Of a stretch of 64,000 bases of DNA, positions 2,809-63,475 are shown piece after piece; position 1 is the stretch's first letter, and each line of letters starts with the position of its first letter. Under the pieces are notes generated by a model, which worked only from the letters and a program-made list of their open reading frames with translations, had not been told where the DNA came from and did no database searches. The stretch is from Flavobacteriales bacterium (GTDB taxonomy: Bacteria; Bacteroidota; Bacteroidia; UBA10329), in contig JAIPBJ010000006.1 in assembly GCA_021739625.1 (NCBI GenBank), positions 5,334 to 69,333 of the forward strand, read 5' to 3'. A program made the position numbers and the translations under genes.

Positions 2809-2901
2809 ATTGTCAACTGAAGTGAATCAACAGAAGGAAATCGAGTGTCCGGCCCATTGCTTGCCGATTATTTCTAATTTCGCACCAAACCTGCACGGAC
2901 G

Positions 2902-3276
2902 ATGAACTTTGAAATCGAGAAGAAGGAAGGCTTTGCAGTGGTGCGGGTCACCACCGAAAAGCTTGACAGCCAGATTTCACCGGCATTGAAATCTGAACTC
3001 GTGGTTCTCAATGCAGATGATTTCAAGAATATCATCATCGATCTATCTGAAACACGGTACTGCGACAGTTCAGGTCTCAGTGCCATTCTCGTGGCCAATC
3101 GGCTGTGCAAAAACTCGCATGGCACCTTTGTGCTTTGCGGCCTGCAGCGCTCCGTTTCCAAATTGATCTCAATCTCACAGTTGGACACCATACTCAATAT
3201 AACCCCCACCTTGGCCGAGGCCATCGATTTTCTCGCCATGGAAGAGGTTGAACGAGACCTTGACAATGAAGAATAA
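2902..3276 (+). CDS. STAS-domain anti-sigma-factor antagonist-like protein
   Basis: ~124 aa with characteristic STAS pattern (DLSETRYCDSSGLSAIL...LCGLQRSVSKLISISQLD). Confidence 0.65.
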   Translation: MNFEIEKKEGFAVVRVTTEKLDSQISPALKSELVVLNADDFKNIIIDLSETRYCDSSGLSAILVANRLCKNSHGTFVLCGLQRSVSKLISISQLDTILNITPTLAEAIDFLAMEEVERDLDNEE

Positions 3277-3325
3277 TTCCTTTCCTTTACACTAACCAAT
3301 CAAAATCATCCAAACCAAATTCATC

Positions 3326-4216: not shown

Positions 4217-4237
4217 TCCTCTTCAAAAGGAAAGCGA

Positions 4238-4272
4238 AAGCCCCGGGCCGTAAGGTCTGGGGCTTTTTGTTT
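4238..4272 (+). terminator. Rho-independent terminator (AGCCCCGG..CTGGGGCT + TTTTTGTTT)
   Basis: GC-rich hairpin followed by a T-run directly after the T9SS cargo gene stop. Confidence 0.55.
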
Positions 4273-4294
4273 GGTCAGAACTGGGTATCCAAGG

Positions 4295-7254: not shown

Positions 7255-8292
7255 TCACTCTGCGAGCCCAACGAGCAATCGCCTTTCCATCAAGTTCGCA
7301 CCGCTCAACAACGTATCACTGATGATTCTGCTCACCAGCGCATCAGCATTGTCCGGATAATTGACGCGGATGACAGACTTTTCGGCCAACCAGCCTTCCA
7401 GTCTGGTCAAGTGCTTCCGTTTGATGGAAGGAAGCACAGTGATGCCCATTTCGGCAAGTGCCACCGCATTGCATTGCTGTTCAAATTGGCCTTTCATAGG
7501 AATGACGCACAGCTTTTTTCTCAGGAACAATGCCTCGGTGGTGGTTCCGAACCCTGCTGCACAGAGCACTCCGCTGCTCGATGCCATGCTGTGGAGGAAT
7601 GCTGTGCTGGAAATTGGGCGCACAGTGATGTTGCCATGGTCCTCTGATGCTGTTGCCCGTTTTGAAAATACCTCCCAGCGCTGTCCCGGAAGCATTGAAA
7701 GCCATTTGATCACCTTGTCCGTACGGTGAGCTGGGAGATACACGGTGCAGTGTCCGAGGTCGGTCACTTTCATCGTTCTCACGTCTTTTCTAATGAGTGG
7801 TGTTTCGATGGACGTGTTGTAGCGCTGAAAGTGAAAGCCGTAAGACCGGCTGACCGGGGCATAATTGTGAAGGATGAACCGGCCTATAGGATCCATGACA
7901 TCTGCCAATGGCACGCCATCGGTAAAAAGTGCGGCCTGATTGCTCAGCCCGATACAGGGCTTGCCATGGATATAGCAGGCCCAGGATGAGATCGGTTCAA
8001 AGTCAGAAACGATGAGGTCGTAATCGTGAACCGGTAGGCTGTTCACTTCTCGCACGAACCTTCGGAAGCGATTGCTGGCATAAGTGGCGTAGAGGTCGAT
8101 CCCACCCTTTTTTCCAAAAATGAAACTGAGCCCGTGGTAGCGATAACGAACAGGAAATGGCAGTTCCAGCTCGCATTGCGTGCCACTGAGCAGCACATCG
8201 ACCTCAGCCCGTCTCTGAAAATGTGGGATGATCTCCATGGCGCGGCTCAAGTGGCCGTTGCCCGTGCCTTGTATGGCATACAGGATTCTCAC
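7255..8292 (-). CDS. Glycosyltransferase family protein (MGT / TIGR00661-like, GT-B fold)
   Basis: N-terminal MRILYAIQGTGNGHLSRA motif typical of UDP-glycosyltransferase/MGT-like enzymes; 345 aa. Confidence 0.5.
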   Translation of the reverse strand: MRILYAIQGTGNGHLSRAMEIIPHFQRRAEVDVLLSGTQCELELPFPVRYRYHGLSFIFGKKGGIDLYATYASNRFRRFVREVNSLPVHDYDLIVSDFEPISSWACYIHGKPCIGLSNQAALFTDGVPLADVMDPIGRFILHNYAPVSRSYGFHFQRYNTSIETPLIRKDVRTMKVTDLGHCTVYLPAHRTDKVIKWLSMLPGQRWEVFSKRATASEDHGNITVRPISSTAFLHSMASSSGVLCAAGFGTTTEALFLRKKLCVIPMKGQFEQQCNAVALAEMGITVLPSIKRKHLTRLEGWLAEKSVIRVNYPDNADALVSRIISDTLLSGANLMERRLLVGLAE

Positions 8293-9149
8293 GCCCTTGC
8301 GGTGATGTTGAATTCGGTGAGCAGCTCGGCATACAACTGTGTGGCAGTAAGCTCAAGCATGACATCCGACTCGCGCGATGCTTCTTCCTGCTGGAACTTT
8401 CGATCGTCATGCACATAGAGTGTCCATTTGCCTTCGCTGTATTCCAAGGCGGTGAGGTTTTCGACCCAGTCGCCAGAGTTCATGTATTCAATGGAACCCT
8501 TGCTGGTTGTGATCGTTGTGATTTCCGGACGGTGAATGTGCCCACAGATCACGTAATCGTAACCGTTCTCTATACCTATCTCGGAGACGGTGTTCTCAAA
8601 ATCGTTGACATGGGCGATGGCGGCCTTCACACTGTCCTTCACTTTTTTTGACAACGACACTTTATCGCGCCCCAATTTCTCCAGCCCGATATTCACCGCC
8701 CGGTTAAAAAGAATGAGCAGGTCATAGCCGAATCCTCCGAGTTTGGCTATCCACTTGGAGTGGCGCATCGACACATCGAACACATCGCCATGGAAGATCC
8801 AGGTCTTCCTGCCGTCCATTTCAAGCACCACCTTGTTCTCAATGATGAGTTTGCCCATACGATGCCCCACGAATTTGCGAAGCATCTCATCATGGTTGCC
8901 GGGCACATAATAGACCTCCACGCCCTTCGACAAGTGCTTCATCAGCTCTTTCACCACCTTCATGTGGGCCGGAGGGAAGTAGCTTTTGCTGAACTGCCAG
9001 ATGTCGATGATGTCGCCATTGAGCACAAGCCGCTTTGGGCGTATGCTGCGCAGGTAGTGTACCAGTTCGTCCGCGTGACATCCGTAGGTGCCCAGATGCA
9101 CATCACTTATGACCACCGTGTCCACTGTTCTCCTTGTATTGTTTTTCAT
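8289..9149 (-). CDS. Metallophosphoesterase of the UDP-2,3-diacylglucosamine hydrolase (LpxH-like) type
   Basis: Calcineurin-like motifs DVHLG...GDIIDIW...GNHDE...GHIHRP; 4-nt overlap with the upstream glycosyltransferase gene suggests an operon. Confidence 0.6.
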   Translation of the reverse strand: MKNNTRRTVDTVVISDVHLGTYGCHADELVHYLRSIRPKRLVLNGDIIDIWQFSKSYFPPAHMKVVKELMKHLSKGVEVYYVPGNHDEMLRKFVGHRMGKLIIENKVVLEMDGRKTWIFHGDVFDVSMRHSKWIAKLGGFGYDLLILFNRAVNIGLEKLGRDKVSLSKKVKDSVKAAIAHVNDFENTVSEIGIENGYDYVICGHIHRPEITTITTSKGSIEYMNSGDWVENLTALEYSEGKWTLYVHDDRKFQQEEASRESDVMLELTATQLYAELLTEFNITARA

Positions 9150-12987: not shown

Positions 12988-15507
12988 CTAAAACTTCGCC
13001 ACCAGCTTCACATTCAACTGTCGCGATGTGAGGTAGTTCGGCACAGCATATTGGCGGTTGGTGATATCAGAGATCCAAAGGTAGGACAGCGTATTGTTGG
13101 TTCCCAGCAGGTTGAACACCTCCAGACTCACCCACAGCGACTTGAGGTAGTGCAGCGGATTCTTCTTGGGAAACTCCTTCTTCTCGCCCTTTATCATGTA
13201 GGAGAAACCGATATCGACCCTGCGGTAGGGCGGAATGCGCAACGTGTCCTGATAGCGCTGGCTGTCGGGCGGACCAAAGGGCATGCCTGTGCCCAGCACC
13301 AGATTGAGGTGCATCTTGAGCATGGGCAGGCGCGGCACATAGTCCTGAAAGAAGAGGGAGAAGTTTACACGCTGGTCGGTGGGGCGCGGAATGTAGCCTG
13401 GCTCCACACGGGTGCTGTCCACCGGCACATTGTTCTCGGTGATACCGAACTGGATCTGCTCACCATCGGAGTTGTAATAGTTGTAATAGAAATCGTCCTT
13501 GATGTCCTCCTGCACGGTCATCACGCTCACGCTGGCCCACGACTCTATGCCCTTGACGAACTCACCGTTTATCTTCAGGTCGAGACCTGTGGCATAGCCC
13601 CTTGCGTTGTTGGTGGCGTAGTAGCGGATGCGCACGTTGTCGATCTCGTAGGGCACGATGTTGTCCAGATACTTGTAATAGACCTCGGCCACGAGCTTGA
13701 AAGGACGGCCCCAAGCGAAGAAATTGTAGTCGGTGCCGATGACCGCATGATAGGATTCCTGCGCTTTCAGGTTCTTGTTGAGCTGACCATTGAGGTCGCG
13801 CAGCTCGCGGTAGAAAGGCGGTTGATAGTACATGCCGCCCGACACGCGGAACACCACATCGCGCTTCCATCTGGGGTTGAAGGCATAGCTGGCGCGGGGC
13901 GTGGCGATGAACTGGCCGTTCACATCCCAATAGTTGAATCGGACACCGGCCGTCAGCGTGTGCTTCGAGGTGTCGGAGAACAGCCATGTGTTCTGCAAAT
14001 GGCCGGAGATGCGGTTGCTCTGAAGGCTGAGGTCGGTCTTCAGCACATTGGACAACGTAAGTTCATTCGGACTGAGCGGAATGCTGTAGCCCGATGAGTC
14101 GTTCATGTTCCATTCGTTCAGCTCATCGGTGATGTACTCGTGCTGATACTGGAGGCCCCAGTCCAGCTTACGGTGGCCGTCCAGCCAATGGCCGATGTGC
14201 TTCACTGTTCCCACATTCACCGTCAGGTAATTCCTTGCATGGTCGAGGAACGTGCCGATGCCCCTGTTGAAGGCCACCTCGCCCAGATTGTCGCTGCCGA
14301 AATTGTTGTCGAGCACCCCCAGCCAGTATTGGCCCTGCACATCGAAGGTCTCGCTCTCGTTGCTGCGATAGCCCGAGGCGATGAACTTGAAGCGCAACCG
14401 CTGATCGGGACGGTACTCGGCCGTGAGCGCGCCCGTCATCGTCTCGAACGTGTTCACCTCCTGCCCATCAAAGAACACAGTGAAGCGCAACGCCTCGCTG
14501 ATGGTGCCGAAATCGGTCTCGCGGTTCTCTGGGATGAAGCGGTACTGATTGAGCGAATAATGGCCAAGAAAACCGATGTCCCACTTGTCGTTCACCTCAT
14601 AATTGAGCAGCGCCTGCGCGTCCCAGAACTGTGGTTTGTACTGCCCGTCCGTGTCCAGACTGCCCAGCACATAAGAGTTGCTGCGATAGCGCAGACCGCC
14701 TATCCAAGAGAACCTGTATTCCTTGGTCGCCCCTTCCAAATGCAGCGCACCGCCCAGCAGACTGCCCGATGCGGTGGCCGCGAACGAGCGTGGCCTTCTG
14801 TATTTCACATCGAGCACAGAGGAGAGCTTGTCGCCATACTTGGCCTCGAACCCGCCTGCCGAAAAGCTGATGCCCTCCACCATGTCGGGGTTGATGAAGG
14901 TGAGTCCCTCCTGCTGCCCGCTGCGCACCAGGAACGGACGGTATATCTCCACATCGTTCACATAGATGAGGTTCTCGTCATAGTTGCCGCCCCGCACATT
15001 GTATTGCGAACTGAGCTCGTTGTTGCTGCTCACCCCGGGAAAGGTCTTGAGCAAAGCCTCGATGCCACCGCCTGCCGATGGAATGATGACGGCCATCTTG
15101 GGGTCGATGCGCTGCATGGTGCTTTTGCGGTTGCTCTCGTCAGATATGAGCACCTCGTCCACCACATTGTCCTTCAGTTTCAGGATGCGGTTCAGGGTGC
15201 GCACCTCCCCTGCTGCGAGGGTGATGTCGTAGCCCTGAGGCTGAAATCGGATGTGCGAGAACGACAGCCGCACCTGCTGCCCGGCAGGCACCTGCACATT
15301 GTAGGATCCGAGGCTGTCCGATGCCGTGCCGAAGCTCGTGCCAATCACCGCGATGCTCACATAAGGAATGCCCATGCCCTGCTCATCGCGCAGTTGGCCC
15401 TGCACTGTGGCGCGGTCCTGGGCTTGGGCCAATGGGGCGATGGCCGACAGCATCAGCACAAAGACCAATGGCCAGACGAGACGTGGCCTGCTGTTGCCGA
15501 AACCCAC
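12988..15507 (-). CDS. TonB-dependent outer-membrane receptor with N-terminal carboxypeptidase-regulatory-like domain; most likely GTG start at 15507
   Basis: GTG at 15507 precedes a canonical signal peptide (GFGNSRPRLVWPLVFVLMLSAIAPLAQA|QD). This is followed by a CarbopepD_reg domain, a plug domain, a long beta-barrel and a C-terminal aromatic residue (..LVAKF). The ORF-track ATG at 15807 would translate the 21-bp repeat array as an N-terminal extension ahead of the signal peptide, which is implausible. Confidence 0.8.
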   Translation of the reverse strand: MGFGNSRPRLVWPLVFVLMLSAIAPLAQAQDRATVQGQLRDEQGMGIPYVSIAVIGTSFGTASDSLGSYNVQVPAGQQVRLSFSHIRFQPQGYDITLAAGEVRTLNRILKLKDNVVDEVLISDESNRKSTMQRIDPKMAVIIPSAGGGIEALLKTFPGVSSNNELSSQYNVRGGNYDENLIYVNDVEIYRPFLVRSGQQEGLTFINPDMVEGISFSAGGFEAKYGDKLSSVLDVKYRRPRSFAATASGSLLGGALHLEGATKEYRFSWIGGLRYRSNSYVLGSLDTDGQYKPQFWDAQALLNYEVNDKWDIGFLGHYSLNQYRFIPENRETDFGTISEALRFTVFFDGQEVNTFETMTGALTAEYRPDQRLRFKFIASGYRSNESETFDVQGQYWLGVLDNNFGSDNLGEVAFNRGIGTFLDHARNYLTVNVGTVKHIGHWLDGHRKLDWGLQYQHEYITDELNEWNMNDSSGYSIPLSPNELTLSNVLKTDLSLQSNRISGHLQNTWLFSDTSKHTLTAGVRFNYWDVNGQFIATPRASYAFNPRWKRDVVFRVSGGMYYQPPFYRELRDLNGQLNKNLKAQESYHAVIGTDYNFFAWGRPFKLVAEVYYKYLDNIVPYEIDNVRIRYYATNNARGYATGLDLKINGEFVKGIESWASVSVMTVQEDIKDDFYYNYYNSDGEQIQFGITENNVPVDSTRVEPGYIPRPTDQRVNFSLFFQDYVPRLPMLKMHLNLVLGTGMPFGPPDSQRYQDTLRIPPYRRVDIGFSYMIKGEKKEFPKKNPLHYLKSLWVSLEVFNLLGTNNTLSYLWISDITNRQYAVPNYLTSRQLNVKLVAKF

Positions 15508-15754
15508 CGATGGTCCGTGGATGCCCACCGATGGTCCGTGGAGGCCCACCGATGGTCCGGGGATGTCTACCAGTGATCCGTGGAGGCCCACCGATGATCC
15601 GTGGAGGTCCACCGATGGTCCGTAGAGGTCCACCGATGGTCCGTGGATGTCCACCGATGGTCCGTGGAGGTCCACCGATGGTCCGTGGATGTCCACCGAT
15701 GGTCCGTGGAGGCCCACCGATGATCCGTGGAGGTCCACCGATGGTCCGGGGATG
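15503..15754. repeat. Tandem array R1: 12 copies of a 21-bp unit (consensus CCACCGATGGTCCGTGGATGT), intergenic, abutting the receptor start codon
   Basis: Direct reading: 12 head-to-tail 21-mers with a few point differences (GGATG/GGAGG alternation), open in several frames on both strands. Confidence 0.9.
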
Positions 15755-15810
15755 TCTACCGGTGTGCGGTCTGCGTCATAGAGATCAAGGCGTGCAACTT
15801 TCCTCACCGC

Positions 15811-41507: not shown

Positions 41508-41675
41508 TTCATCAGAATGAGGTTTTCCTTCATCAGAATGGAGAATTCCTTCATCAAAAATCAGAATTCCTTCATCAGAATCGAAAATTCCTTCATCAAA
41601 AATCAGAATTCCTTCATCAGAATGGAGAATTCCTTCATCAGAATGGAGCATTCCTTCATCAGAACCCTCAGATCT
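41508..41675. repeat. Tandem array R2: 8 copies of a 21-bp unit (consensus TTCATCAGAATGGAGAATTCC) in the convergent gap between nosY and the outer-membrane gene
   Basis: Direct reading of 8 head-to-tail 21-mers with internal variants (AATGGAG / AAAATCA / AATCGAA); begins 19 nt after the nosY stop and ends at the stop codon of the minus-strand gene. Confidence 0.9.
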
Positions 41676-46583: not shown

Positions 46584-46838
46584 GCATAAGGCTCGCATAG
46601 CCTCGCGGTTCCTTTTTCCTGATGGTCGTTTTCGATGGTCGTTACTGATCGCCCTTGGCGGCAGTGGATGCCTTAACTTCAATATACAGAGGACTACGTA
46701 GGGCCGGTTCAATGCCCTGAATGTCCTTTGACCGTTGAAGGCCGGCCGGTCACACTGGCCTCCAAGGAATCCAGAAACCTTTCAAACGGGGCGGATCTGA
46801 AAAGCCAAACGAGTAGGGAACCCAAAGACCACATCATC

Positions 46839-48077
46839 ATGAACACAGTTTCTACACTCAAAAACCTTCCGATCGCACTGGTCCTGGGCCTCGCCCTTCT
46901 GCAATCGGCATCGGCCCAAACATGGACACTGATGGACGAGACCTTCACCCAGAGCATGAAGGAAATCGAATTCTTCGATGAGAACACAGGCATCGTAAGC
47001 CGGGGCTATGCCATGAACACGACCTCAGATGGCGGCACCTCATGGGGCAGCGACATCGATTTCACATGGACAGTGAACGCGCTCAAGTACACCGGGGGAT
47101 CCACCCTTTTTCTGGGCACCGGAAACGGCACGATCTTCAAATCTGTGGACGGTGGTGCCAACTGGTCTCAGATTGGAGGCTACATCGTCAGCGACATCCG
47201 CAGCATGGCCTTCAATGGGTCGAACGGCATTGTGGTGGACAACAACTGCAAGATCGCATGGACCAGCAATGGTGGCGACAGTTGGACTGCCATACCAAGC
47301 GATGACCTCTGCGGAAACCTGAGCCGCTTGGACCATGTGGACATGCCCTCCTCGACCGTGGCCTATGCGGGCGGAAACAACGGATACATGTTCAAGTCAA
47401 CGGACGGTGGTCAGACTTGGACGGCCATCACCTCACTGCCAGCAGAATTCGATGATATGAGCGGAATGTCGTTCCCGACCACCGAGGTGGGCTACATCAC
47501 CGGCAGCGTAATGAACGAGAATACGGCACTTGTGCTCAAGACCACCGATGGCGGTGCCAACTGGACGGACATCAGCGCTGGTCTGACCCAGAGCATATCG
47601 GACATCTTTGCAGTGAACGCCACCACAGTGTATGTGGGTGCAGGGGGCAACAAGATCTACAAGTCAACGGACGGAGGTGACAATTGGGCCGTGGATTATA
47701 CCCATCCTGTCTGCACGCAGTGCGCCATCAAGGAATTCGATCTGGGCGGCACCACGCTTTATGCCCTGTTCGACAACGGTGGAGAGCACAAGAAGATCGT
47801 GAAGCTGGCCAACGCCACGGTAGGGATCAACGACACACCGGACCAGAACACCTTCAGTGTCCGTCCCAACCCGAGCAATGGGATATTCAGCATCACTTTT
47901 CAAAAGGCCCCCGTACAACTGGATGTCTATGACGTTCTGGGCAATCTGTTGTTCTCAAAGGGAAACCTTTCCCTCACCAATGTTCAACTGGATCTGAGCC
48001 ATCTGTCCAAGGGCATTTATGTGATGAAGGCGTTCGATGGCACTGGCGCAAGCACGCAACGGTTGGTGATCGACTGA
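46839..48077 (+). CDS. Secreted BNR/Ycf48-like beta-propeller protein with T9SS type-A C-terminal sorting domain
   Basis: Signal peptide (LPIALVLGLALLQSASAQ); repeated S-x-D-G-G-x-(T/N)-W BNR motifs; C-terminal LDVYDVLGNLLF...KGIYVMKAFDGTGASTQRLVID CTD. Confidence 0.7.
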   Translation: MNTVSTLKNLPIALVLGLALLQSASAQTWTLMDETFTQSMKEIEFFDENTGIVSRGYAMNTTSDGGTSWGSDIDFTWTVNALKYTGGSTLFLGTGNGTIFKSVDGGANWSQIGGYIVSDIRSMAFNGSNGIVVDNNCKIAWTSNGGDSWTAIPSDDLCGNLSRLDHVDMPSSTVAYAGGNNGYMFKSTDGGQTWTAITSLPAEFDDMSGMSFPTTEVGYITGSVMNENTALVLKTTDGGANWTDISAGLTQSISDIFAVNATTVYVGAGGNKIYKSTDGGDNWAVDYTHPVCTQCAIKEFDLGGTTLYALFDNGGEHKKIVKLANATVGINDTPDQNTFSVRPNPSNGIFSITFQKAPVQLDVYDVLGNLLFSKGNLSLTNVQLDLSHLSKGIYVMKAFDGTGASTQRLVID

Positions 48078-50223: not shown

Positions 50224-50258
50224 GCATGGGTTCAAGGTTCAAGGTTCAAGGTTTGGGG

Positions 50259-50762
50259 ATGATGGCCGCACTCAGTGCGATACTGTTGACCGGCAGTTGC
50301 AAAAGCAAGGAACAGACCACGGTGAGGCCCACGGAGACCACAACCTCTGCGACCACAACTGCCACCGAAGGCCCGGCCATTCTGGCCACCATAGAGCGCA
50401 CCTCGTGCTTCGGCAGTTGCCCCATCTACAAGGCCACCTTTTTCGACAATGGCGAGGTGATGTATGTGGGCAGGAATTTCGTGACCAACATCGGCACCTA
50501 CACCACCCTCATCTCGGCCGAAGAGCTGCAAGGGATAAGGACCATGGCCGAGGACGTGGGCTATTTCCTGCTGGAGGACGCCTATCCCACCCCCATATCG
50601 GATTTCCCGAAATGCATCACATCGGTGCAGATGGACGGGAAGAAGAAGAGCGTTCTGAACGGTGAGAACGCCCCGCGCGACCTGATCGGTCTTGAGCGCC
50701 ACCTCGATGGCCTGCTGAAGGAACGCGAATGGGTGAAGGTGTCGGACGTGAGCCGCTACTGA
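50259..50762 (+). CDS. Hypothetical lipoprotein
   Basis: Lipobox MMAALSAILLTGSC followed by a Thr-rich linker; conserved-looking Cys pairs (SCFGSCPIYKA). Confidence 0.5.
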   Translation: MMAALSAILLTGSCKSKEQTTVRPTETTTSATTTATEGPAILATIERTSCFGSCPIYKATFFDNGEVMYVGRNFVTNIGTYTTLISAEELQGIRTMAEDVGYFLLEDAYPTPISDFPKCITSVQMDGKKKSVLNGENAPRDLIGLERHLDGLLKEREWVKVSDVSRY

Positions 50763-52333
50763 CCCGGCAGCGGTCTGCGCGACCGTTCCTTGATCTCGTT
50801 GGCGAGCATGTCGATGGCACCGTCCTGTGCATCGAGCCGCAGATAGGAGCCCTTGCCCCTGCGGGCGATGCGCTTCATCATCCGCTCGGCATCATCATCG
50901 CCAGCATAGCCTGCCACCGAAAGGATGATGCCCTTGCCGGCATGGTCGGCAGCCATGAGAATGGCATCCTTCTCGGTGAACGATGAGGAGTTGAACATGC
51001 CATCGGTGACCAGAATGAGCTGATTGTTGCCGCCCTCGACCCATTGCGCGGTAAGTTGGGCGTAGGCCTCCTTCATGCCTTTGACCCCACTGGTGTAGCC
51101 TTCGGCCTGGAGGTCGAAAATGAGGTCGATGATGGTCTCGGGCGCGGTGACGGATGTGGGGGGCAGCACGGTGAACACCGCTGCGTTGAACGCCAGCACC
51201 GAGAGCCTATCGATGGGCCGCATCATGCCGATGAGACGCGCGGCCGCTGCCTTGAGCCTGTCGAGCTTGGCATCCTTGTTCATGGACGATGAGACATCGA
51301 GCAGCAGCACGATGTTGTTGGGGCGATAGGTGGCCTCGGCAAATTCGGGGGCGGGCGCCTGCACTGCCGTGGCCGGTGGTGTCTGCTCCCCAACGGACAC
51401 TGGGGCCACTGGGGCAGCGGGCGGTTCGTCAAACTGGTCGTTGACGTTGATGCCAAGGTCGGTCTCCGGTTCCTCCACCTTTTTGGGAGGCTGTGGCACA
51501 GGCCGCACGGGCCCGGCCCATCGGTCTTCGGCCACCGGTTCCTCCATCTGTTCGTTGACGGAGACCCCCATGTCGGCCACCGGTGCTTCGGCCGGCACCC
51601 TGTGCACGGTGACCGCCTGGGCGGGCCGCTCAGGCTGTTGGGCGGGGGGCTGCATTCCGCCCTTCTTCCGGGGTTCGACCATGATGATGACGGTTCCCTG
51701 CCTGCGTTCGAGCGCAATCTCCTCCACGGTGGGCCGATAGTCGGGATGCTCCACCTTGGCTGTGAAGCGGCCCATCTCCAGTCTGGTGCGCACAAGTCCG
51801 CGACTGTCGGTGGTGTAGGTGGCGCGGCTTTCCTCTTTCTTGAACAGCCCGACCGTTGCGCCCACCACCTGCTGGCCCGTTGAGCGGTCCACCACGGTGA
51901 TGGTGCTGGTGCCCGAGGACTGTGCGGGCTGGTCTGCGCTGAATGTGGGGCAGGCGGTGAGGGCGTTGTTGCGGAGCGAGACGATGTTGCCGCGCAGGGT
52001 GAGGCGCTGCGGCCTGTCGGAGGCGTTGGAAAAGAGCTCCACCTCTTTGGAGAAGGGGCCGTTGTCGGCCGTGTAATAGTGGATGGTGACCTCGGCCGTC
52101 TCACCGGGGCCGATGCTCCTGTTGGGAAGGACGACCTGCACATCGCGCCCGAAGTGCTGGGGCAGGAACATGAGTTTTGACGTGCCGGTGTTGGTGAGGC
52201 GGAAGACCGCAGGCGGGCTGTCCCAATCGCGCACGGTGCCGAAGTTGAAGGAGGTGCTCTGCCAGTCTATGCGCTGCCCCGATGCCATGGAGCAGGCCAA
52301 TGTGATGAACAGGGAAAGCAGTGGGCGTCTCAT
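50756..52333 (-). CDS. von Willebrand factor A domain protein with N-terminal beta-sandwich region and central proline-rich linker (probable start at ATG 52333)
   Basis: Signal peptide MRRPLLSLFITLACSMASGQ; C-terminal VWA/MIDAS motif VLLLDVSSSM...LVTDG; low-complexity P/A/E linker. Confidence 0.7.
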   Translation of the reverse strand: MRRPLLSLFITLACSMASGQRIDWQSTSFNFGTVRDWDSPPAVFRLTNTGTSKLMFLPQHFGRDVQVVLPNRSIGPGETAEVTIHYYTADNGPFSKEVELFSNASDRPQRLTLRGNIVSLRNNALTACPTFSADQPAQSSGTSTITVVDRSTGQQVVGATVGLFKKEESRATYTTDSRGLVRTRLEMGRFTAKVEHPDYRPTVEEIALERRQGTVIIMVEPRKKGGMQPPAQQPERPAQAVTVHRVPAEAPVADMGVSVNEQMEEPVAEDRWAGPVRPVPQPPKKVEEPETDLGINVNDQFDEPPAAPVAPVSVGEQTPPATAVQAPAPEFAEATYRPNNIVLLLDVSSSMNKDAKLDRLKAAAARLIGMMRPIDRLSVLAFNAAVFTVLPPTSVTAPETIIDLIFDLQAEGYTSGVKGMKEAYAQLTAQWVEGGNNQLILVTDGMFNSSSFTEKDAILMAADHAGKGIILSVAGYAGDDDAERMMKRIARRGKGSYLRLDAQDGAIDMLANEIKERSRRPLPGQ

Positions 52334-52507
52334 GTGGCTAAAGGTAGCCAACGGGATGGGGGGAGAGGAGACCTGTTTCCCAGCGGAGACACATTCTCCA
52401 GCGGAGGGCTTTATGGAAAAGTGCCGACCCATGCCCTAAGGGCCGCTCCACATTGCTGTGGAACGGTTTTTTTTTGGTACTTGCCGATTCTTACAGTGAA
52501 ACCCTGT

Positions 52508-52738
52508 GATAGGAAATATGGAACACCTGATAGGAGAACTGAAACACCAAATAGGAGAAATGGAACACATGATAGGATATATGGAACATATAATAGGATG
52601 AACAGAACATCTGATAGGAGAAATAAAATGCCTGACAGGATACATGGAACATTTGATAGGATAAATGGAACATACGATAGGAAAGACTGAACATCTGATA
52701 AAAGAAATGGAACACACGTTAGGAGTGATAGAACAGAT
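52508..52738. repeat. Tandem array R3: 11 copies of a 21-bp unit (consensus GATAGGAGAAATGGAACATCT) in the divergent promoter region
   Basis: Direct reading of 11 head-to-tail 21-mers; AT-rich; lies between the start of the VWA gene (-) and the start of the hypothetical gene at 52820 (+). Confidence 0.9.
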
Positions 52739-52819
52739 GTGTTCCATGGCTCCGATCGCATGAGAGACCTGTACGGGCAAATGAATCTCGGAACCGGATA
52801 CCGTTAGAACAATGAATTC

Positions 52820-53467
52820 TTGAAGAACATGATCGACAGACCCTACACCTGCACCGACCCTCAGGCCGTTCAGCGCTGCGAGAGCATGCTGCTGGCCTAT
52901 GACGACCACATGGCCGCCTTCACTGCTCTGGACCCGGATTTCAATGCCACGTTCCGCAACGACTGGCGCGCGGCCATCGATGCCTGTATCGCCTATCCCA
53001 CGGATGAGAGCACGCTCGACCTGCAAAAGGGCCACGGGCAGGTCATTGACCGATGCATGGAACAGTGCCGCATGGCCCTTGCCGACCTGCGCTATTATGC
53101 CAAGAAGGCATACAGCACCAAGGGCCGCTACCGTGTGTTCGGGTTCGAGCGTCACAACAGATTGCGCGGTTCAACGGCCAACTATGCGGTGTTCATGCAC
53201 ACGCAGCATCGGCTGGCGCTGCGCTTTCAGCCCGACCTCGCGGCCAAGGGCATGACCCCTGCGCAGACCGATGCCCTGCTCACCTCTGCCACCGCCCTCT
53301 GGGATGCCGAAGTGGGGCAGGAGACCTTCAAACGCGAACGCATCCTGCACACCGTGGAGCGCAGCGAGGCCTTCCGCCATCTCTGGTCCTTTGTGCAGAG
53401 GTTGCAGCACGCGGCCGATGCCGTTTTTGAGAATGATGCGGTGGGAAGGGGGCTATTTGTGGGATGA
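52820..53467 (+). CDS. Hypothetical Cys-rich protein (215 aa), no recognised family
   Basis: GC-rich ORF with normal codon usage; no signal peptide; several conserved-looking Cys (C..C......C...C). Confidence 0.5.
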   Translation: MKNMIDRPYTCTDPQAVQRCESMLLAYDDHMAAFTALDPDFNATFRNDWRAAIDACIAYPTDESTLDLQKGHGQVIDRCMEQCRMALADLRYYAKKAYSTKGRYRVFGFERHNRLRGSTANYAVFMHTQHRLALRFQPDLAAKGMTPAQTDALLTSATALWDAEVGQETFKRERILHTVERSEAFRHLWSFVQRLQHAADAVFENDAVGRGLFVG

Positions 53468-53589
53468 TCGGGGCCGAGGAACGCGACAGGTATTGGAAGG
53501 TGATCGAGGGGAAGGTGGGGTGAGGGAGGCGTTGCCGCCCCGTCCACGTCCCTTCATAAAGGCTAATTTTGGCCGCAAGCAATAGCATC

Positions 53590-54825
53590 ATGGTCAACCG
53601 CATAGGCATAGGCAATTTCAAGTCGATCGACAAGCTGGAGTTCGAGCTTGGCCGCTTCAACGTGTTCATCGGTGAGAACGGCTGCGGAAAGAGCAACATC
53701 CTTGAGGCAATTGGGATGGGTGCTGCAGCGTCTGCCAATAAACTGGAGAATGAATTTCTGAGCAGTAGGGGCATTCGGGTTACCGATTCTCTTTACATGC
53801 GATCTGCTTTTTCTTCCAAAAACTCTGGGAAGGACATCAGCATTTCAATTCAGATTCGAGATATTGATGTGGAATGGTCGATTTCGAACGATAATCAACC
53901 GTACTCTTCATGGCAACAGGAAGCAGTTGTGAAAGATGGTGTCGATTCGTCCCCTGAAACTGAAGAACCATCCGAAGTTGACAGCCTATTGAAATCATGG
54001 AAGGCACTTGAGACGGACACCTACAATCTTTTAGTTGAAGAAAAAAAAACGGAAGATCCAACTCGTAAGAGAGAAATTGGAAAAGTTCTAAAGCGTGTGG
54101 AGGAATTCTTGCCTCGACTTCAGGAGACGTTTCAGCAAATAATTGCCAAGACGTTACACATACCCTTAGGGCAATTCCAGATTTACTCCCCTGAAAACTC
54201 GTCATTGAGGGCGTTTGAAAGAGAAGGCCAAATAGAGCCGTTGGGTCTCAAAGGCGAAGGGCTCTTCAAACTGCTTAAGACCTTTGCACACACAAATCCT
54301 GAAGCTATCCAACGGATCGCTGAGGAATTGCAGGTCTTCGATTGGTTTGAAAGCTTTCAGTTGCCAGACAAGACAATGTCGGACGAGCGGTACATCAAAG
54401 TGAAGGACCGCTTCCTTGATGATGCGCTGGATCAGTTCGACCAAAGGAGCACCAACGAGGGTTTCCTTTTCGTGCTCTTCTACCTCGCACTGTTTATCAG
54501 CAAGGACACGCCCAAGTTCTTCGCCATCGACAACATAGAGGCTTCGCTAAACCCTAAGCTGTGCAAGGAACTGATCGCCAAGCTCAACCGCCTTTCGGCA
54601 GAGAACAGCAAGCAGGTGATCATGACCACCCACAGCCCGGCCGTGCTCGATGGTCTCGACCTGACGGATGACGAACAGCGGCTGTTCGTGGTGTATCGCA
54701 ACAGTGAGGGGCGCACACGTGTAAGGCGGGTAGAGCCGCCCAAAGTGATGGCAGGCGAGGAGGAAGTGCCGCTGTCAGAGGCGTTCGTGCGCGGTTATCT
54801 CGGAGGCCTCCCTAAGAATTTCTGA
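53590..54825 (+). CDS. AAA_21-type ABC ATPase (OLD/PARIS AriA / AbiLi-like defence ATPase)
   Basis: Walker A GENGCGKSN, ABC-signature-like STNEGF, the AAA_21-diagnostic IDNIEASLNP block (variant of lIDEPEnsLHP) and TTHSP H-loop. A long inserted coiled-coil region lies between the N- and C-terminal halves. TAATTTTG promoter element at 53564-53571. GC is visibly lower than in the flanking genes. Confidence 0.75.
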   Translation: MVNRIGIGNFKSIDKLEFELGRFNVFIGENGCGKSNILEAIGMGAAASANKLENEFLSSRGIRVTDSLYMRSAFSSKNSGKDISISIQIRDIDVEWSISNDNQPYSSWQQEAVVKDGVDSSPETEEPSEVDSLLKSWKALETDTYNLLVEEKKTEDPTRKREIGKVLKRVEEFLPRLQETFQQIIAKTLHIPLGQFQIYSPENSSLRAFEREGQIEPLGLKGEGLFKLLKTFAHTNPEAIQRIAEELQVFDWFESFQLPDKTMSDERYIKVKDRFLDDALDQFDQRSTNEGFLFVLFYLALFISKDTPKFFAIDNIEASLNPKLCKELIAKLNRLSAENSKQVIMTTHSPAVLDGLDLTDDEQRLFVVYRNSEGRTRVRRVEPPKVMAGEEEVPLSEAFVRGYLGGLPKNF

Positions 54826-54828
54826 GCG

Positions 54829-55497
54829 GTGGCAAGGGTGTTCGGCATCATAGCAGAAGGACCGAGTGACATTGCTGTCATCCGGAACATCCTGACAGGC
54901 TATTTCTCAGACCCCGACCTTGAGTTGACCGAGATTCAGCCTGTGAAAAAACAGCCCAGTGGAGAGTATGAGGCGGGCGGCTGGAATCAGGTGCTGGCCT
55001 GCTGCGCCTCTGACCGCCTGCGCGGTGCCTTCCAGTACAATGAAGCAGTGATCATTCAGATAGACACCGATGTCTGTGAAGAGAAGGGCTACGATGTGTC
55101 CAAGCGGGGCGAGAAGGACAAGGTTGTGATGCCTGAGGAACTTATTCTCCGTGTGGAGGAGAAACTGTCCGCCCTCATCGGTACGGAGGTGATGGAGAAG
55201 TTCACTGACCGTATTTTGTTTGCGGTGTGCGTAGATGAACTGGAATGCTGGCTGCTACCGTTGTATTATACCGATAGGAAGAAATCCAAGACTACTGGAT
55301 GCCTGTCCACGCTCAATCAGGCTCTCGGGAAAAAGGAGGATTTCACCATTGATGTGAACAAGAAGAACCACCGATACTACGAGGTCATCTCTGAGCCATA
55401 CCGCAAGAAGCGAAAGGTATTGATGGCTGCCGCTGAGCAGAATGCGAGTTTCAAGGTTTTCATGGACAGGTTGAGCGCGAGGTTCGAAATGCCTTGA
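54829..55497 (+). CDS. TOPRIM-like (OLD-family / DUF4276-DUF4435-like) putative nuclease partner of the ATPase
   Basis: GTG start 4 nt after the ATPase stop (translational coupling). N-terminal IAEGPSD (conserved Glu) and IQIDTDVCEE (DxD) match the TOPRIM catalytic motifs of OLD-family nucleases. 222 aa. Confidence 0.5.
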   Translation: MARVFGIIAEGPSDIAVIRNILTGYFSDPDLELTEIQPVKKQPSGEYEAGGWNQVLACCASDRLRGAFQYNEAVIIQIDTDVCEEKGYDVSKRGEKDKVVMPEELILRVEEKLSALIGTEVMEKFTDRILFAVCVDELECWLLPLYYTDRKKSKTTGCLSTLNQALGKKEDFTIDVNKKNHRYYEVISEPYRKKRKVLMAAAEQNASFKVFMDRLSARFEMP

Positions 55498-55568
55498 CGG
55501 CTTGGAACATTTCTCCCCAGTATCTCCCCATCTTTACACAACCTTAAACAATTCTAACCCAAAGACAG

Positions 55569-56033
55569 ATGAGAACAAGATTCCTTACCATGATAATGAT
55601 TGCCACTGCGCTGGGCTTTGCAGGTTGCGCAGAAGACAATGACGATGACACGGACAATGGCGTTCCGGCCAACACGCTGATCGTGAGTGGCACAAGCATT
55701 TCCATGTCCTCGGTCGTGTGCTCAGAGACCGGCAGCGGAAATGACCTTACCCTCACGGTCTCGGACATCGCTATGGAAAATCTCCTGTATATCCGTTTCC
55801 ATATTGAGCGGCCTGCTGTCACTACCACCATCCCACTGTCGCCCAGTGGTTCAAGTTCAGAGGCGTGGGGCGACTATACGGTGAATGGCAGCATCGAATA
55901 TGAGATAAAGAGCGGGACAGCCACGCTTACCCCACAGTCCAATGGTTCGCTGACCATCACATTCAACAACGTTGTTGCCGAAACGAACAATGATGTTCAG
56001 GCCACGTTGAGTTTCAACGGTACCTGCCTGTAG
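55569..56033 (+). CDS. Hypothetical lipoprotein (154 aa)
   Basis: Lipobox LGFAGC followed by a D-rich linker and a beta-rich domain; no family recognised. Confidence 0.45.
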   Translation: MRTRFLTMIMIATALGFAGCAEDNDDDTDNGVPANTLIVSGTSISMSSVVCSETGSGNDLTLTVSDIAMENLLYIRFHIERPAVTTTIPLSPSGSSSEAWGDYTVNGSIEYEIKSGTATLTPQSNGSLTITFNNVVAETNNDVQATLSFNGTCL

Positions 56034-56065
56034 GACAGTACTGCCCTTTTCTGCATTGAATGATG

Positions 56066-56100
56066 AACGCCTGAGGCCAACGCTTCAGGCGTTTGTTTTT
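56066..56100 (+). terminator. Rho-independent terminator (AACGCCTGAGG...CTTCAGGCGTT + TGTTTTT)
   Basis: Hairpin plus T-run 33 nt after the lipoprotein stop. Confidence 0.55.
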
Positions 56101-56181
56101 GGTGGACAGAGGCTTCATGGCTGTTCACCGTTCACCCCCTGATTCCTGAACCGTTCCCGCCCAGCCCCTACTTTTGCCGCC

Positions 56182-57585
56182 ATGGCAAGAGACAAAGTGG
56201 TGCGCGATGTGGTGATAGAGGAGATGGCGGCCGAGGGCAAGGCGCTGGCCCGCATAGGCGAGGTGGTGACGTTCGTAGAGGGCGTGGTGCCGGGCGATGT
56301 GGTGGATGTGCTGATCACGAAGAAACGCAAGAACTACTGGGAGGGGCGGCCCTACCGCTTCGTGTCGTATTCGGAGAAGCGGGCGGATGCGCGGTGCTGC
56401 TATTTCGGGGTGTGCGGGGGCTGCAAATGGCAGCATCTGGACTATGCGGATCAGCTGGCCTTCAAGGAGAAGCAGGTGAAGGATGCCTTGCAGCGCATAG
56501 GCAAGGTGAGTGTGGGCGAATGGCTGCCCATCATGGGTTCGCAGGAGGTGTTCCACTACCGCAACCGCCTGGATTTCAGCTTTGCCGACAAGCGCTGGCT
56601 CACAAGGGAGGAGGTGGAGAGCGGCACTGATATCGCGGAAAGGCCCGCGCTGGGGTTCCATGTGCCGGGCCGCTGGGACAAGGTGCTGGATGTGGAGGAA
56701 TGCCACCTGCAGCCCGAGCCGAGCAACGCGATCCGCAACCGGGTGCGCGAGCTGGCGATGGGGCACAACATCCCCTTCTTCGACCCGGTGAGCCAGAAGG
56801 GCCACCTGCGCAACCTGACGCTGCGCAACACCACGACAGGGCAGTGGATGCTGCTGCTGTCCGTGGGGAGCGACAGCCCGAAATGGCGCGATGCGGTGCT
56901 TGGACCGATCGTAAGGGAGTTCCCGCAGCTCACGAGTGTGATGTATGTGGTGAACACGAAGGCGAACGACACGATATATGACCTCGACATCAAGGTGTAT
57001 GCGGGCCAGGACCACATTATGGAGGAGATGGAGGGGCTGCGGTTCAAGATCGGGCCGAAATCGTTCTTCCAGACCAACGGCAAGCAGGCCGAGGAGCTGT
57101 ATAAGGTGGCCCGCGATCTTGCTGGACTTACGGGCAATGAAACGGTCTATGACCTCTATACCGGCACGGGCACCATTGCGCTCTACGTGTCGAAGAAGGC
57201 GAAGAAGGTCGTGGGCATCGAGCAGGTGGAGGCCGCGATCGAGGATGCGAAATTGAACGCATCGCTCAACGGCATAGGCCATGCCTCCTTCCACGCGGGC
57301 GACATGAAGGACATCTTCACTCCTGAGTTCATTGCGAGGGAAGGCCGCCCCGATGTGATCATCACCGACCCGCCCCGCGCAGGGATGCATGGCGATGTGG
57401 TGCATCGGCTGCTGGAACTGGCCGTGCCGCGCATCGTCTATGTGAGCTGCAACCCGGCCACGCAGGCCCGCGACCTGCAACTGCTGTCAGCGCAATATGA
57501 TGTGGTGAAGGTGCGTCCCGTGGACATGTTCCCCCACACGCACCACGTGGAGAATGTGGCGCTGCTGGAGCTGAGAGCGCTTTGA
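56182..57585 (+). CDS. rlmD: 23S rRNA (uracil1939-C5)-methyltransferase RlmD (RumA)
   Basis: TRAM domain N-terminus, Fe-S cluster Cys (C...CGGCKWQH), SAM-MTase motifs (DLYTGTGTIAL; DPPRAGM) and catalytic Cys near the C-terminus. Confidence 0.85.
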   Translation: MARDKVVRDVVIEEMAAEGKALARIGEVVTFVEGVVPGDVVDVLITKKRKNYWEGRPYRFVSYSEKRADARCCYFGVCGGCKWQHLDYADQLAFKEKQVKDALQRIGKVSVGEWLPIMGSQEVFHYRNRLDFSFADKRWLTREEVESGTDIAERPALGFHVPGRWDKVLDVEECHLQPEPSNAIRNRVRELAMGHNIPFFDPVSQKGHLRNLTLRNTTTGQWMLLLSVGSDSPKWRDAVLGPIVREFPQLTSVMYVVNTKANDTIYDLDIKVYAGQDHIMEEMEGLRFKIGPKSFFQTNGKQAEELYKVARDLAGLTGNETVYDLYTGTGTIALYVSKKAKKVVGIEQVEAAIEDAKLNASLNGIGHASFHAGDMKDIFTPEFIAREGRPDVIITDPPRAGMHGDVVHRLLELAVPRIVYVSCNPATQARDLQLLSAQYDVVKVRPVDMFPHTHHVENVALLELRAL

Positions 57586-59538: not shown

Positions 59539-59540
59539 TT

Positions 59541-59616
59541 CGAGGTTCCGAGTTCAAAGTTTAAGGTTCGAGAGCGAGTCAACTTTGAACCTTGAACTCT
59601 GAACCTTGAACTACTT
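59541..59616. repeat. Palindromic TTGAACC-heptad repeat element in a convergent intergenic gap (likely bidirectional terminator)
   Basis: GTTCGAGGTTCCGAGTTCAAAGTT...AACTTTGAACCTTGAACTCTGAACCTTGAAC: inverted copies of the GTTCAAAGTT / AACTTTGAAC motif able to form a long hairpin between two convergent genes. Confidence 0.6.
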
Positions 59617-60111: not shown

Positions 60112-60120
60112 ATTGATAAA

Positions 60121-60152
60121 GGGACGAGGGACGAAGGACAAGGGACGAGAGG
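60121..60152. repeat. 31-nt GGGACGA-heptad element, copy A (GGGACGAGGGACGAAGGACAAGGGACGAGAGG)
   Basis: Near-identical (one mismatch) to copy B at 63242-63273. Confidence 0.85.
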
Positions 60153-60204
60153 CTTATACCTCATCAGCCCAACTTTGAACCTTGAACATTAAACTTTGAA
60201 CCCT

Positions 60205-60531
60205 TTACATAAAACCAAGTTCCAACAGTGCCGCCTCACTCATCATGTCCTTGTCCCATGGCGGGTCGAAGGTCAGTTGCACCTTGCCGGAAGTAATGCC
60301 AGGAACAGCCCGTACTTTCTCTTCCACTTCCTGCGGCATGCTTTCGGCCACTGGGCACGAAGGCGATGTGAGGGTCATCAGCACCTTGGCGTTCAGTTCA
60401 TCATCCACTTTCACTTCATAGATGAGGCCCAGCTCGTAGATGTCCACAGGAATCTCCGGGTCATAGACCGTGCGCAGCACATCAATGATGCGCTCTTCCA
60501 GTTTCTTGCGTTCTTCAGTCGTGGCGTTCAT
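60205..60531 (-). CDS. sufT: Fe-S assembly DUF59/MIP18-family protein (SufT-like)
   Basis: DUF59 pattern DPEIPVDIYELGLIYEV...LTSPSCPVAE; suf operon context. Confidence 0.75.
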   Translation of the reverse strand: MNATTEERKKLEERIIDVLRTVYDPEIPVDIYELGLIYEVKVDDELNAKVLMTLTSPSCPVAESMPQEVEEKVRAVPGITSGKVQLTFDPPWDKDMMSEAALLELGFM

Positions 60532-62218: not shown

Positions 62219-63475
62219 CTATTCCATTCCGGATAAACGTGATTGGATCTTTTCTTCTAATACCGCCCGAAGGCCCTCATCACTCACTTGCACCAACACA
62301 TCTGAGGCAAATGCAGTCAGCAACAACGCAATCGCTCCTTTGTGCGAAAGTCCACGCGAACGGAGGTAGAACACCGCGTCTTCGTCCAACTGCCCCGTTG
62401 TGCTGCCGTGGCTGCATTTCACATCATCGGCATAGATCTCCAACTCTGGTTTGGAGTTCATGGTGGCGGTGTCGCTCAGCAGGATGTTCTTGTTCTGCTG
62501 ATAGGCATTGGTCTTCTGAGCATCGCGGTGCACATGCACTTTGCCGTTGAACACACCAGTTGCTTTTCCAGAGAGAAGACCCTTGTAAACCTCATTGCTC
62601 TGGCAGTTCGGCACAAGATGATCCACCAGCGTATGGTTGTCATACAGGTCGTTACCATCGATCATATAGAACCCATTGAGGTGTGCCTCGGCATTCTGAC
62701 CAGTAATGCGCACGTTGGTGTTGTTGCGGATCAATTTTCCGCTCAATTGCACCGTATTGGTGGTGAAACGGCCATCGCGTTCTACATTCACTTCGGTGGT
62801 GTTCACCAGATTTCCAGTGCCTATTTCTTGCAGAAAATTCAGTTCCAACGAAGCATTAGCACCGATGAAAGCCTCTGTGACATGATTCACCAATGAGCTG
62901 TCAGAAATGGCTGTCCCATGGAAATGATGCACGCAATTCAGCTTAGCGCCATCTTCCAGTACAATGAGGATGCGTGAATTGAAAAGCTCTGATCCAGTGG
63001 CACTGACACTATGGTCGATGAGCAGTGATTGCGCGAGTTGTGCGTTCTTTTTCACTTGGATGATCAGCACATCTGTGAACAGGACTGTGTTCAACGCGGC
63101 CAATTCCTGCTTGCCATGAATACCGCTCTTTCCAATGAATCGATTCAACTCACCTGCATCAGAAAACAGACTGAACGTCACGCCATCCAGCGTTGGGAAA
63201 TTCTTGCTGACCGAAGAATTCGTGAGCTGAACTGCTGGACTGGGGACGAGGGACGAAGGACGAGGGACGAGAGTTTCAGCCGATGAAGAAGATGCCAACC
63301 CGTTATCAAAGAGCCGCTTGATGTTGGTGTATTTCCAATCCTCATGACGCTTGCTCGGAATTCCTTTCTCACGGAGAAACGATGCCGCTTCCTCTCGAAT
63401 GGCAAAAAGGCTGTCTGAGGGCATGGCCTCAAGCAGATGCCCAAGAACTTCAGTAGTCTCTTTCAGAATACTCAT
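62219..63475 (-). CDS. sufD: Fe-S cluster assembly protein SufD, carrying an in-frame insertion derived from the GGGACGA repeat element
   Basis: SufD N-terminal EDWKYTNI motif and C-terminal beta-helix core; overlaps the sufC stop by 4 nt. Confidence 0.85.
63242..63273. repeat. 31-nt GGGACGA-heptad element, copy B (GGGACGAGGGACGAAGGACGAGGGACGAGAG), inside the sufD coding sequence
   Basis: One mismatch relative to copy A; encodes ..[13 protein letters not shown].. in the SufD N-terminal domain. Confidence 0.85.

Follow-up and report, generated by a model that had tools for sequence, protein, structure and literature searches.

The 64,000-nucleotide stretch analysed here, hereafter the window, comes from a Flavobacteriales bacterium (contig JAIPBJ010000006.1 of assembly GCA_021739625.1, positions 5,334 to 69,333). 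Within it, a block of about 3.7 kb (52436-56100) separates a gene for a secreted protein with a VWA domain from the methyltransferase gene rlmD. The block contains an array of 21-bp repeats, a gene for a hypothetical protein (hyp215), adjacent genes for an ATPase and a Toprim-like partner, and a lipoprotein gene. This block is probably a mosaic of three parts: a native module made of the array and hyp215, an acquired 2.0-kb unit made of the ATPase-partner pair, and a native lipoprotein gene joined to rlmD. The pair appears to be horizontally mobile cargo, the only defensible cargo in the block, and on its protein sequences it is assigned to the PADLOC candidate defence system PDC-M31, a family that was already known. 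The block was tested gene by gene, through the homologues of each gene and their genomic contexts, which are designated below by locus numbers such as L086.

Extent and mobility of the ATPase-partner cassette

The following features belong to the cassette or mark its upstream edge.

53467-53523, plus strand: remnant of another gene, consisting of its last 17 codons and stop (IGAEERDRYWKVIEGKVG, then the stop), recognised by alignment with L086
53474-55500, plus strand: extent of the apparent mobile cassette, comprising a promoter region and two genes, from blastn and alignments with L086/L087 and L088
53564-53571, plus strand: putative -7 promoter box TAATTTTG, 18 nucleotides upstream of the ATPase ATG
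53590-54825, plus strand: AAA_15/AAA_21 ATPase of 411 amino acids (PADLOC PDC-M31A, Pfam)
54829-55497, plus strand: DUF4276-type Toprim-like partner of 222 amino acids (PADLOC PDC-M31B, homologue profiles)

The 2.0-kb unit is found in three differing genomic contexts on other Bacteroidota contigs, at 76-87% nucleotide identity. In L086/L087 the pair lies between a gene for a 114-amino-acid protein and a gene for a TPR protein, and in L088 it is flanked by a polyketide-cyclase-like gene on one side and an acyl-CoA dehydrogenase gene on the other. The neighbourhoods of these three closest copies are unrelated; their partners are 82-84% and their ATPases 65-75% identical to those of the window, and none is accompanied by hyp215 or by the lipoprotein gene. 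Blastn matches cover window positions 53474-53906 and 54163-55486 against L086/L087, and 53537-53785 and 54172-55500 against L088, so that homology spans from 50-115 bp 5' of the ATPase ATG to the stop codon of the partner. The two genes are adjacent and in the same order in all seven other chromosomal or viral loci with upstream DNA (L086-88, L096, L098-100) and on two plasmids. More distant pairs with this gene order occur on four IMG/VR contigs, on a small Acinetobacter plasmid of the MOBQ type and on a Pseudanabaena plasmid whose annotation reads 'AAA family ATPase' and 'DUF4276 family protein'. In the other loci the pair has a guanine-plus-cytosine (GC) content of 0.50-0.51 against 0.58 for its flanks, about 8 points lower; the corresponding values in the window are 0.505 and 0.547.

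Upstream of the ATPase gene, a stretch common to the window, L086 and L088 reads CTTCATAA(A/G)GGCTA(AT/CC)TTTGGCCGCAAGCAAT. It includes a -7-like box, which is TAATTTTG in the window and L088 and TACCTTTG in L086. The former fits the Bacteroidetes -7 promoter motif TAnnTTTG. The cassette thus seems to carry its own putative promoter together with a two-gene operon.

The edges of the cassette can be placed closely. In L086 the complete 114-amino-acid gene stands upstream of the pair, and the window retains its last 17 codons directly after the hyp215 stop, which implies that the incoming segment was cut inside that gene. The remnant appears to mark the truncated 5' edge of this segment and points to the recombination of a larger one. 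The left junction lies within 53468-53474 and the right one within 55500-55521: homology of the hyp215 side to L083 and L092 ends at 53463, and homology to L091 resumes at 55522. After hyp215, both L092 and L083 (89% and 83% nucleotide identity in this gene, respectively) continue with other DNA and no pair. On the opposite side, L091 (84% amino-acid identity in RlmD) encodes the lipoprotein and RlmD without the pair upstream. The insertion is deduced from these two half-comparisons because no close relative shows the exact empty site. The truncated gene remnant suggests integrase-independent movement of such pairs, apparently via illegitimate or homology-assisted recombination.

The lipoprotein gene and rlmD

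The right end of the block and its flank comprise three features.

55569-56033, plus strand: lipoprotein of 154 amino acids with the lipobox LGFAGC (open reading frame)
56066-56100, plus strand: intrinsic-terminator-like hairpin AACGCCTGA...TCAGGCGTT followed by TGTTTTT, 3' of the lipoprotein gene
56182-57585, plus strand: rlmD, encoding the 23S rRNA U1939 methyltransferase (TIGR00479, 1e-97, 328 bits against a cut-off of 184), the right flank

Only six homologues of the lipoprotein were found. In L091, positions 2836-4887 correspond to window positions 55522-57567, with the lipoprotein gene and rlmD colinear at 82% nucleotide identity. This homology begins 25 nucleotides past the stop codon of the partner. 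The colinearity makes the lipoprotein gene a resident neighbour of rlmD and confines the right junction to the interval given above. The lipoprotein appears to be lineage-restricted and native rather than cargo. Membership of the Riean_0653 family was considered for it and rejected (18 bits against a cut-off of 57). Among 80 distant GTDB loci centred on rlmD, none has yidC, the VWA gene or the downstream ABC gene near rlmD, and the VWA protein, used as query in a metagenome scan, returned no relative. T9SS sorting tails encoded nearby and the best-scoring RlmD matches agree in placing the source organism in Bacteroidota.

hyp215 and its 21-bp array

The left part of the block comprises three features.

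52447-52471, plus strand: terminator-like hairpin TCCACATTGCTGTGGA, then the T-run ACGGTTTTTT, just 5' of the array
52507-52739 (52508-52738 for units in register), plus strand: 21-bp array, 10 copies by TRF and 11 units in register
52820/52829-53467, plus strand: hyp215, a hypothetical protein of 212-215 amino acids (open reading frame)

The family of hyp215 is large: in a library clustered at 50% identity, 922 clusters match at E <= 1e-3. Family members occur in a short form of about 215 amino acids and in a long form of about 310 amino acids with an added CarboxypepD_reg domain. Profile searches of hyp215 gave no match in Pfam, NCBIfam, PADLOC or PHROGs. Its predicted model (pLDDT 88.7) is a long all-helical bundle in which no DNA-binding fold is recognisable and whose structural neighbours are generic only. 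The protein had initially been described as Cys-rich, a label that does not suit 5 Cys in 215 residues (2.3%). Its homologues sit among ordinary chromosomal genes; the loci examined number 13 (L083-85, L091-95, L101-104 and the Logan contig L081). The orthologues in L083 and L092 are 84-91% identical to hyp215, and the homologues in L084, L085, L093-95 and L101-104 are 35-51% identical. The pair is absent at 12 of the 13 loci, all but L081, which comes from the same organism as the window; this contig of 8,864 bp ends 73 bp past the ATPase stop, at the start of the partner gene.

The array accompanies the gene. A 21-bp-period array stands directly 5' of the short-form gene in eight of nine distinct family members with enough upstream sequence. 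Clear arrays are present in the window, L092, L083, L085, L101 (11 copies, 82-92% matches) and L104 (9.8 copies), and beside a 27%-identical paralogue in L091; the array is weak in L095 and absent in L093/L094, which count as one member. As a background, the other ~1.45 Mb of fetched Bacteroidota loci contain about seven such arrays. The consensus unit in the window is GATAGGA.AaATgGAACA..T, with conservation at positions 1-7 and 14-18 and variation elsewhere. The array of the L092 orthologue has the same consensus unit, and the units in L104 and L101 read.TTAGGAaAAgTTcATCA.Gc and.TAAGATGC.AC.C.ACACGc, respectively. The division of the units into conserved and free columns speaks against a neutral satellite and for a bipartite motif under selection at two-turn phasing. 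A terminator and T-run precede the array in the window, L085, L101 and L104, and one or more inverted units close it; the window array ends in the palindrome GAACA-GATG-TGTTC (52731-52744). The array and hyp215 thus seem, from their recurrence across these loci, to form a conserved module that is separate from the defence pair.

Three of the loci share a further arrangement. In L085 (8282-10645), L101 (2506-4648) and L104 (2533-4654), a long hyp215 paralogue is followed by a terminator, the 21-bp array and the short homologue. No separate array accompanies the long paralogue (311-318 amino acids), which carries a C-terminal CarboxypepD_reg domain. Directly upstream of this layout, L101 encodes a two-component system of the OmpR type.

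Two other explanations of the array were considered and set aside. It could be coding sequence, as open reading frames of 74-118 amino acids cross it in several frames; a unit without stops keeps these frames open, and the frames are not conserved in L083, L085 and L104. It could also lie in a region forming a long RNA hairpin, as degenerate inverted units come after the direct ones in L101 and L104, but fold z-scores are only -1.5 to -2.7.

The association between array and hyp215 is the only unusual element of the block, the pair being ordinary. It can be posited, tentatively and with somewhat less than even confidence, that the two constitute an undescribed Bacteroidota module of a cis-element plus a gene, in which the repeats are iteron-like binding sites and which is perhaps exchanged as a cassette near defence genes, a possibility at which L086 and L091 hint. 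Each module would then, with the same reserve, comprise about 8-11 units whose bipartite motif (here GATAGGA...GAACA) drifts together with the gene. Such an array might aid cooperative nucleoprotein assembly or act as a copy-number-tunable promoter controlling hyp215. Tests of this association could shed light on the function of 21-bp intergenic arrays and on a Bacteroidota family that is large and uncharacterised.

A related proposal is that the site upstream of the lipoprotein gene and rlmD is a recombination hotspot, and that the array with hyp215 is itself a mobile cassette. At the equivalent place L091 has, in inverted orientation, another paralogue of hyp215 (27% identity), accompanied by a 21/84-bp array of its own. 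Similarly, L086 has a 21-bp array and the 114-amino-acid gene directly 5' of the pair, the same gene whose end is kept after hyp215 in the window. hyp215 also has differing neighbours in the window, L083 and L092 at 83-89% nucleotide identity, and in both loci homology to the window stops at its stop codon, with differing DNA beyond. However, the GC content of hyp215 (0.61) and its GC at third codon positions (GC3, 0.78) are native, being similar to those of the VWA and rlmD genes, and in the distant orthologues L085, L101 and L104 the local order (long paralogue, then array, then short gene) is stable. Neither a recombinase nor terminal repeats were seen on the contigs concerned, which are short. 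Mobility of the array and hyp215 themselves is therefore regarded as doubtful, and the mosaic with a native array-hyp215 module is preferred.

Identity of the ATPase-partner pair

The ATPase matches the PDC-M31A model at 2.6e-76 (255 bits), the best of 132 PADLOC matches; PDC-M25A, HEC-01A, AriA, AbiLi, mad3, Old and GajA are matched far more weakly. Pfam recognises AAA_15, AAA_21 and SMC_N. A called gene that matches exactly backs the start codon at 53590, and the protein has a Walker A motif (GENGCGKS), a Walker B region (FFAIDNIE) and an H-loop (TTHSP).

The partner gene starts 3 nucleotides past the ATPase stop, on the same strand. Its product matches three PDC-M31B models (2e-12, 2.3e-11 and 2e-06) and no other PADLOC family; the PDC-M31B match is modest (45 bits). 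About 300 homologues, among them proteins of Magnetomorum and Nannocystis, are spread across phyla, and cyanobacterial proteins are 46-48% identical. Among 40 sampled homologues, 23 match DUF4276 (best 1.7e-06) and nine match RloB, and one homologue on a plasmid carries the annotation 'DUF4276 family protein'. DUF4276 and RloB have been placed in the Toprim superfamily, which is characterised by a Glu in the β1-α1 loop and a DxD motif after β3 (PMC12065111). The partner has both: E10, D79-T80-D81 and E139 are invariant in the 40 homologues, and the predicted model (pLDDT 90) has the Toprim strand order, with E10 and the DxD placed accordingly relative to strands E4-8 and E73-79. The partner is presumed to be a metal-dependent nuclease effector.

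Several cyanobacterial homologues of the partner (P0017, P0022, P0045, P0048, P0051 and P0102) are labelled 'phage tail protein' at NCBI. This label looks like a propagated misannotation because these proteins have the Toprim motifs and a constant ATPase neighbour.

A number of observations weigh against an acquired defence pair. The partner has no Pfam match at E <= 0.01, and neither Foldseek nor sequence profiles found anything significant for it in the PDB. The PDC systems are, according to their authors, 145 candidates without experimental test, and HEC-01, which combines a related ATPase with a TOPRIM protein, was not protective in assays (Payne et al., 10.1101/2024.01.29.577857). The GC3 values of the pair (0.59 and 0.67) lie inside the range of the window's genes. 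An exact empty site, in which the VWA gene, array, hyp215, lipoprotein gene and rlmD follow one another, was not found in any relative close enough. Exact matches to the proteins of the source organism came from one public run only (Logan SRR12088350), and the closest RlmD of any GTDB species representative is 61% identical. Nothing that would account for the movement of the cassette, whether an integrase, repeats or a target duplication, was found.

The failure of HEC-01 to protect also bears on the proposal that the pair is a selfish toxin-antitoxin or addiction module, or an orphaned restriction accessory of the RloA/RloB kind, kept by its mobility or by post-segregational killing. The Pfam title of AAA_21 is 'putative AbiEii toxin, Type IV TA system', and the RloB matches among the partner homologues agree with this proposal. 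So do the presence of the pair on small mobilisable Acinetobacter plasmids and its occurrence alone, outside any defence island, in L086 and L088. On the other hand, the best matches of both proteins are defence-candidate models, and no restriction-modification genes were seen close to the pair in any of its contexts. The ATPase, which is conserved apart from the hypervariable insert described below, parallels the pattern reported for AriA (PMC11464382). The two proposals also overlap mechanistically, in that abortive-infection systems behave like toxin-antitoxin modules. A purely selfish module is considered unlikely, and membership of the candidate defence system is the preferred assignment.

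Base composition, left flank and the block as a whole

The left flank is a single gene.

50756-52333 (52432 for the full open reading frame), minus strand: secreted protein with DUF1573, CarboxypepD_reg and VWA domains (Pfam)

Translation likely starts at M34 of the 558-amino-acid open reading frame, at the signal peptide MRRPLLSLFITLACS. With a GC content of 0.634 and a GC3 of 0.80, this gene is native, GC-rich and outside any cargo.

The preliminary description of the block gave the order of its features correctly, from the array through to the lipoprotein gene with its terminator, and the absence of a tRNA that it reported extends to the whole 64-kb window. Its statement that the block has the lowest GC content of the window holds for one gene: the ATPase gene contains the lowest 500-bp (0.422) and 1-kb (0.464) GC windows of the 64 kb. 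Averaged over its full length, the block has a GC content of 0.518 (0.546 for the window), a value that 14% of windows of the same size equal or undercut; the lowest of these has 0.494, at ~2.9-6.5 kb and outside the block. Below-average GC is confined to the array (0.35), the pair (ATPase 0.495, partner 0.52) and the lipoprotein gene (0.52), hyp215 being above average. By eye the dip is exaggerated because the flanking genes are unusually GC-rich (0.63 and 0.61). The cumulative GC skew of the window has its minimum near 37-38 kb and climbs to ~59 kb, and yidC lies at 48.3-50.2 kb.

The block lacks the traits of a classical genomic island: there is no integrase and no tRNA target, Pfam finds no recombinase domain among its proteins, and no flanking direct or inverted repeats or target duplication bound either the block or the cassette. 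Nor is its composition atypical over its whole length, and presence/absence polymorphism among relatives is seen only for the 2-kb pair. The preliminary view of horizontally acquired cargo is accordingly retained for the pair, with its three contexts and low GC, and abandoned for hyp215, the array and the lipoprotein gene. It had further suggested that the hypothetical protein and the lipoprotein are sensor or immunity components of the defence cassette. This is contradicted by hyp215 homologues without the pair, by the pairs of L086-88 without either gene and by the lipoprotein gene beside rlmD in L091.

That the entire 3.7-kb block is one acquired islet with these two proteins as accessories is highly improbable: four genes on one strand between two GC-rich core genes, a mean GC below that of the window and the lack of a housekeeping annotation on any of the four speak for it, but hyp215 matches the flanks in composition and its homologues are ordinary chromosomal residents, the lipoprotein gene and rlmD are colinear elsewhere without the pair, and homology of the cassette to L086-88 ends at 53474 and 55500. 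Moreover, the four genes occur together only in the Logan contigs L081 and L082 of the source organism and in no other organism's locus examined, an outcome that the preliminary description had itself named as evidence against a common origin. In annotation, hyp215, the array and the lipoprotein should carry no defence label, and the cargo is the PDC-M31-type pair.

Other repeats and motifs

Two further 21-bp arrays are present in the window. The first (15504-15761, minus strand) has 12.3 copies of GGACCATCGGTGGACCTCCAC and lies 5' of the CarboxypepD_reg and Plug domains of a TonB-dependent receptor open reading frame. The second (41508-41664), with 7.5 copies of TTCCTTCATCAGAATGGAGAA, occupies the space between two convergent genes. 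Their units are unrelated, and no hyp215 paralogue was found beside either. Three 21-bp arrays in 64 kb is well above the ~1 per 200 kb of other Bacteroidota loci, and the two additional arrays indicate that the phenomenon is wider than the hyp215 gene family. Another example is found in L086, where a differing array (8018-8185, ~8 units, GCTTCGCACTTACGTATACAT-like) stands 5' of the 114-amino-acid gene (8378-8722), which has no Pfam match and is directly upstream of the PDC-M31 pair.

Tandem heptamer repeats occur between genes as well. GGTTCAA is repeated 3.6 times at 50229-50253, directly after the yidC stop, and inverted runs of GGTTCAA-like and TTGAACC-like heptamers (59540-59612 and 60171-60215) lie between convergent genes at 59.5 kb. 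GGGACGA is repeated four times at each of two intergenic sites 3.1 kb apart (60120-60149 and 63243-63271). A DUF805 RNA motif (Rfam RF03081, 57.3 bits, above the gathering score) is located at 46759-46823 on the plus strand, at the start of the open reading frame 46728-48077.

The variable segment of the ATPase and a proposed mechanism

Divergence among the cassettes is concentrated in one part of the ATPase. Identity is 92-94% over residues 1-65 and 84-91% over residues 196-411 but falls to 21-38% over residues 66-195, and nucleotide homology among the cassettes breaks at 53907-54162, within the ATPase gene. Residues 66-195 form a putative sensor insert. In AriA, the ATPase of PARIS, central and radial pore residues are poorly conserved, which has been suggested to mirror the recognition of different viral triggers (PMC11464382).

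If PARIS and the OLD class serve as a guide, the pair may act in defence as follows. The ATPase oligomer would keep the Toprim nuclease inactive by sequestering it. A phage-derived trigger would be sensed via the variable insert of the ATPase, and its binding would release or activate the nuclease. The freed nuclease could then cut nucleic acid, possibly tRNA or DNA, and so abort the infection. The three near-identical cassettes, which differ almost only in residues 66-195 of the ATPase, provide a natural experiment on trigger specificity.

Comparison with known systems

The 21-bp array of the block presumably resembles the iterons of plasmid Rep proteins, the direct-repeat sites of OmpR/PhoB-type regulators and the heptad arrays of omega proteins. 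As in such iteron or operator arrays, the units are tandem, have a period of two helical turns, combine conserved sub-motifs with variable spacers and lie between a terminator and a gene start. The array differs from them in that no replication or partition gene is next to it and the downstream protein is a helical bundle.

For the pair, one point of comparison is MADS, in which MAD4 has been reported as a DUF4276 homologue (PMC12065111). The ATPase scores 52.9 bits against the NCBIfam MAD3 model (NF047739), whose cut-off is 420, and neither a methyltransferase nor other MADS genes are present in the block. Both the MAD3 equivalog score and the methylation-associated gene set of MADS are thus missing.

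PARIS shares with the pair its two-gene layout, in which an ABC ATPase is combined with a Toprim protein, a conserved ATPase core with a variable region, and mobility and low GC content (PMC11464382). The match of the ATPase to AriA (4.9e-29) falls 47 orders of magnitude short of that to PDC-M31A. The effectors are different: the partner is of the DUF4276/RloB type and has 222 amino acids, whereas AriB is a DUF4435 protein of ~300 amino acids, and neither DUF4435 (Pfam) nor AriB (PADLOC) is matched. The pair thus lacks an AriB-type effector.

The wider OLD-like class has the AAA_15/21 family in common with the pair, and the ATPase matches HEC-01A (1e-31), AbiLi (5e-22) and mad3 (1e-20). The matches to Old and GajA range from 1e-17 to 1e-19; these are single-chain fusions, unlike the two separate genes of the window. 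The closest correspondence is with PDC-M31 itself, as both proteins find their best matches in its A and B models and their genes are adjacent on one strand with the ATPase first.

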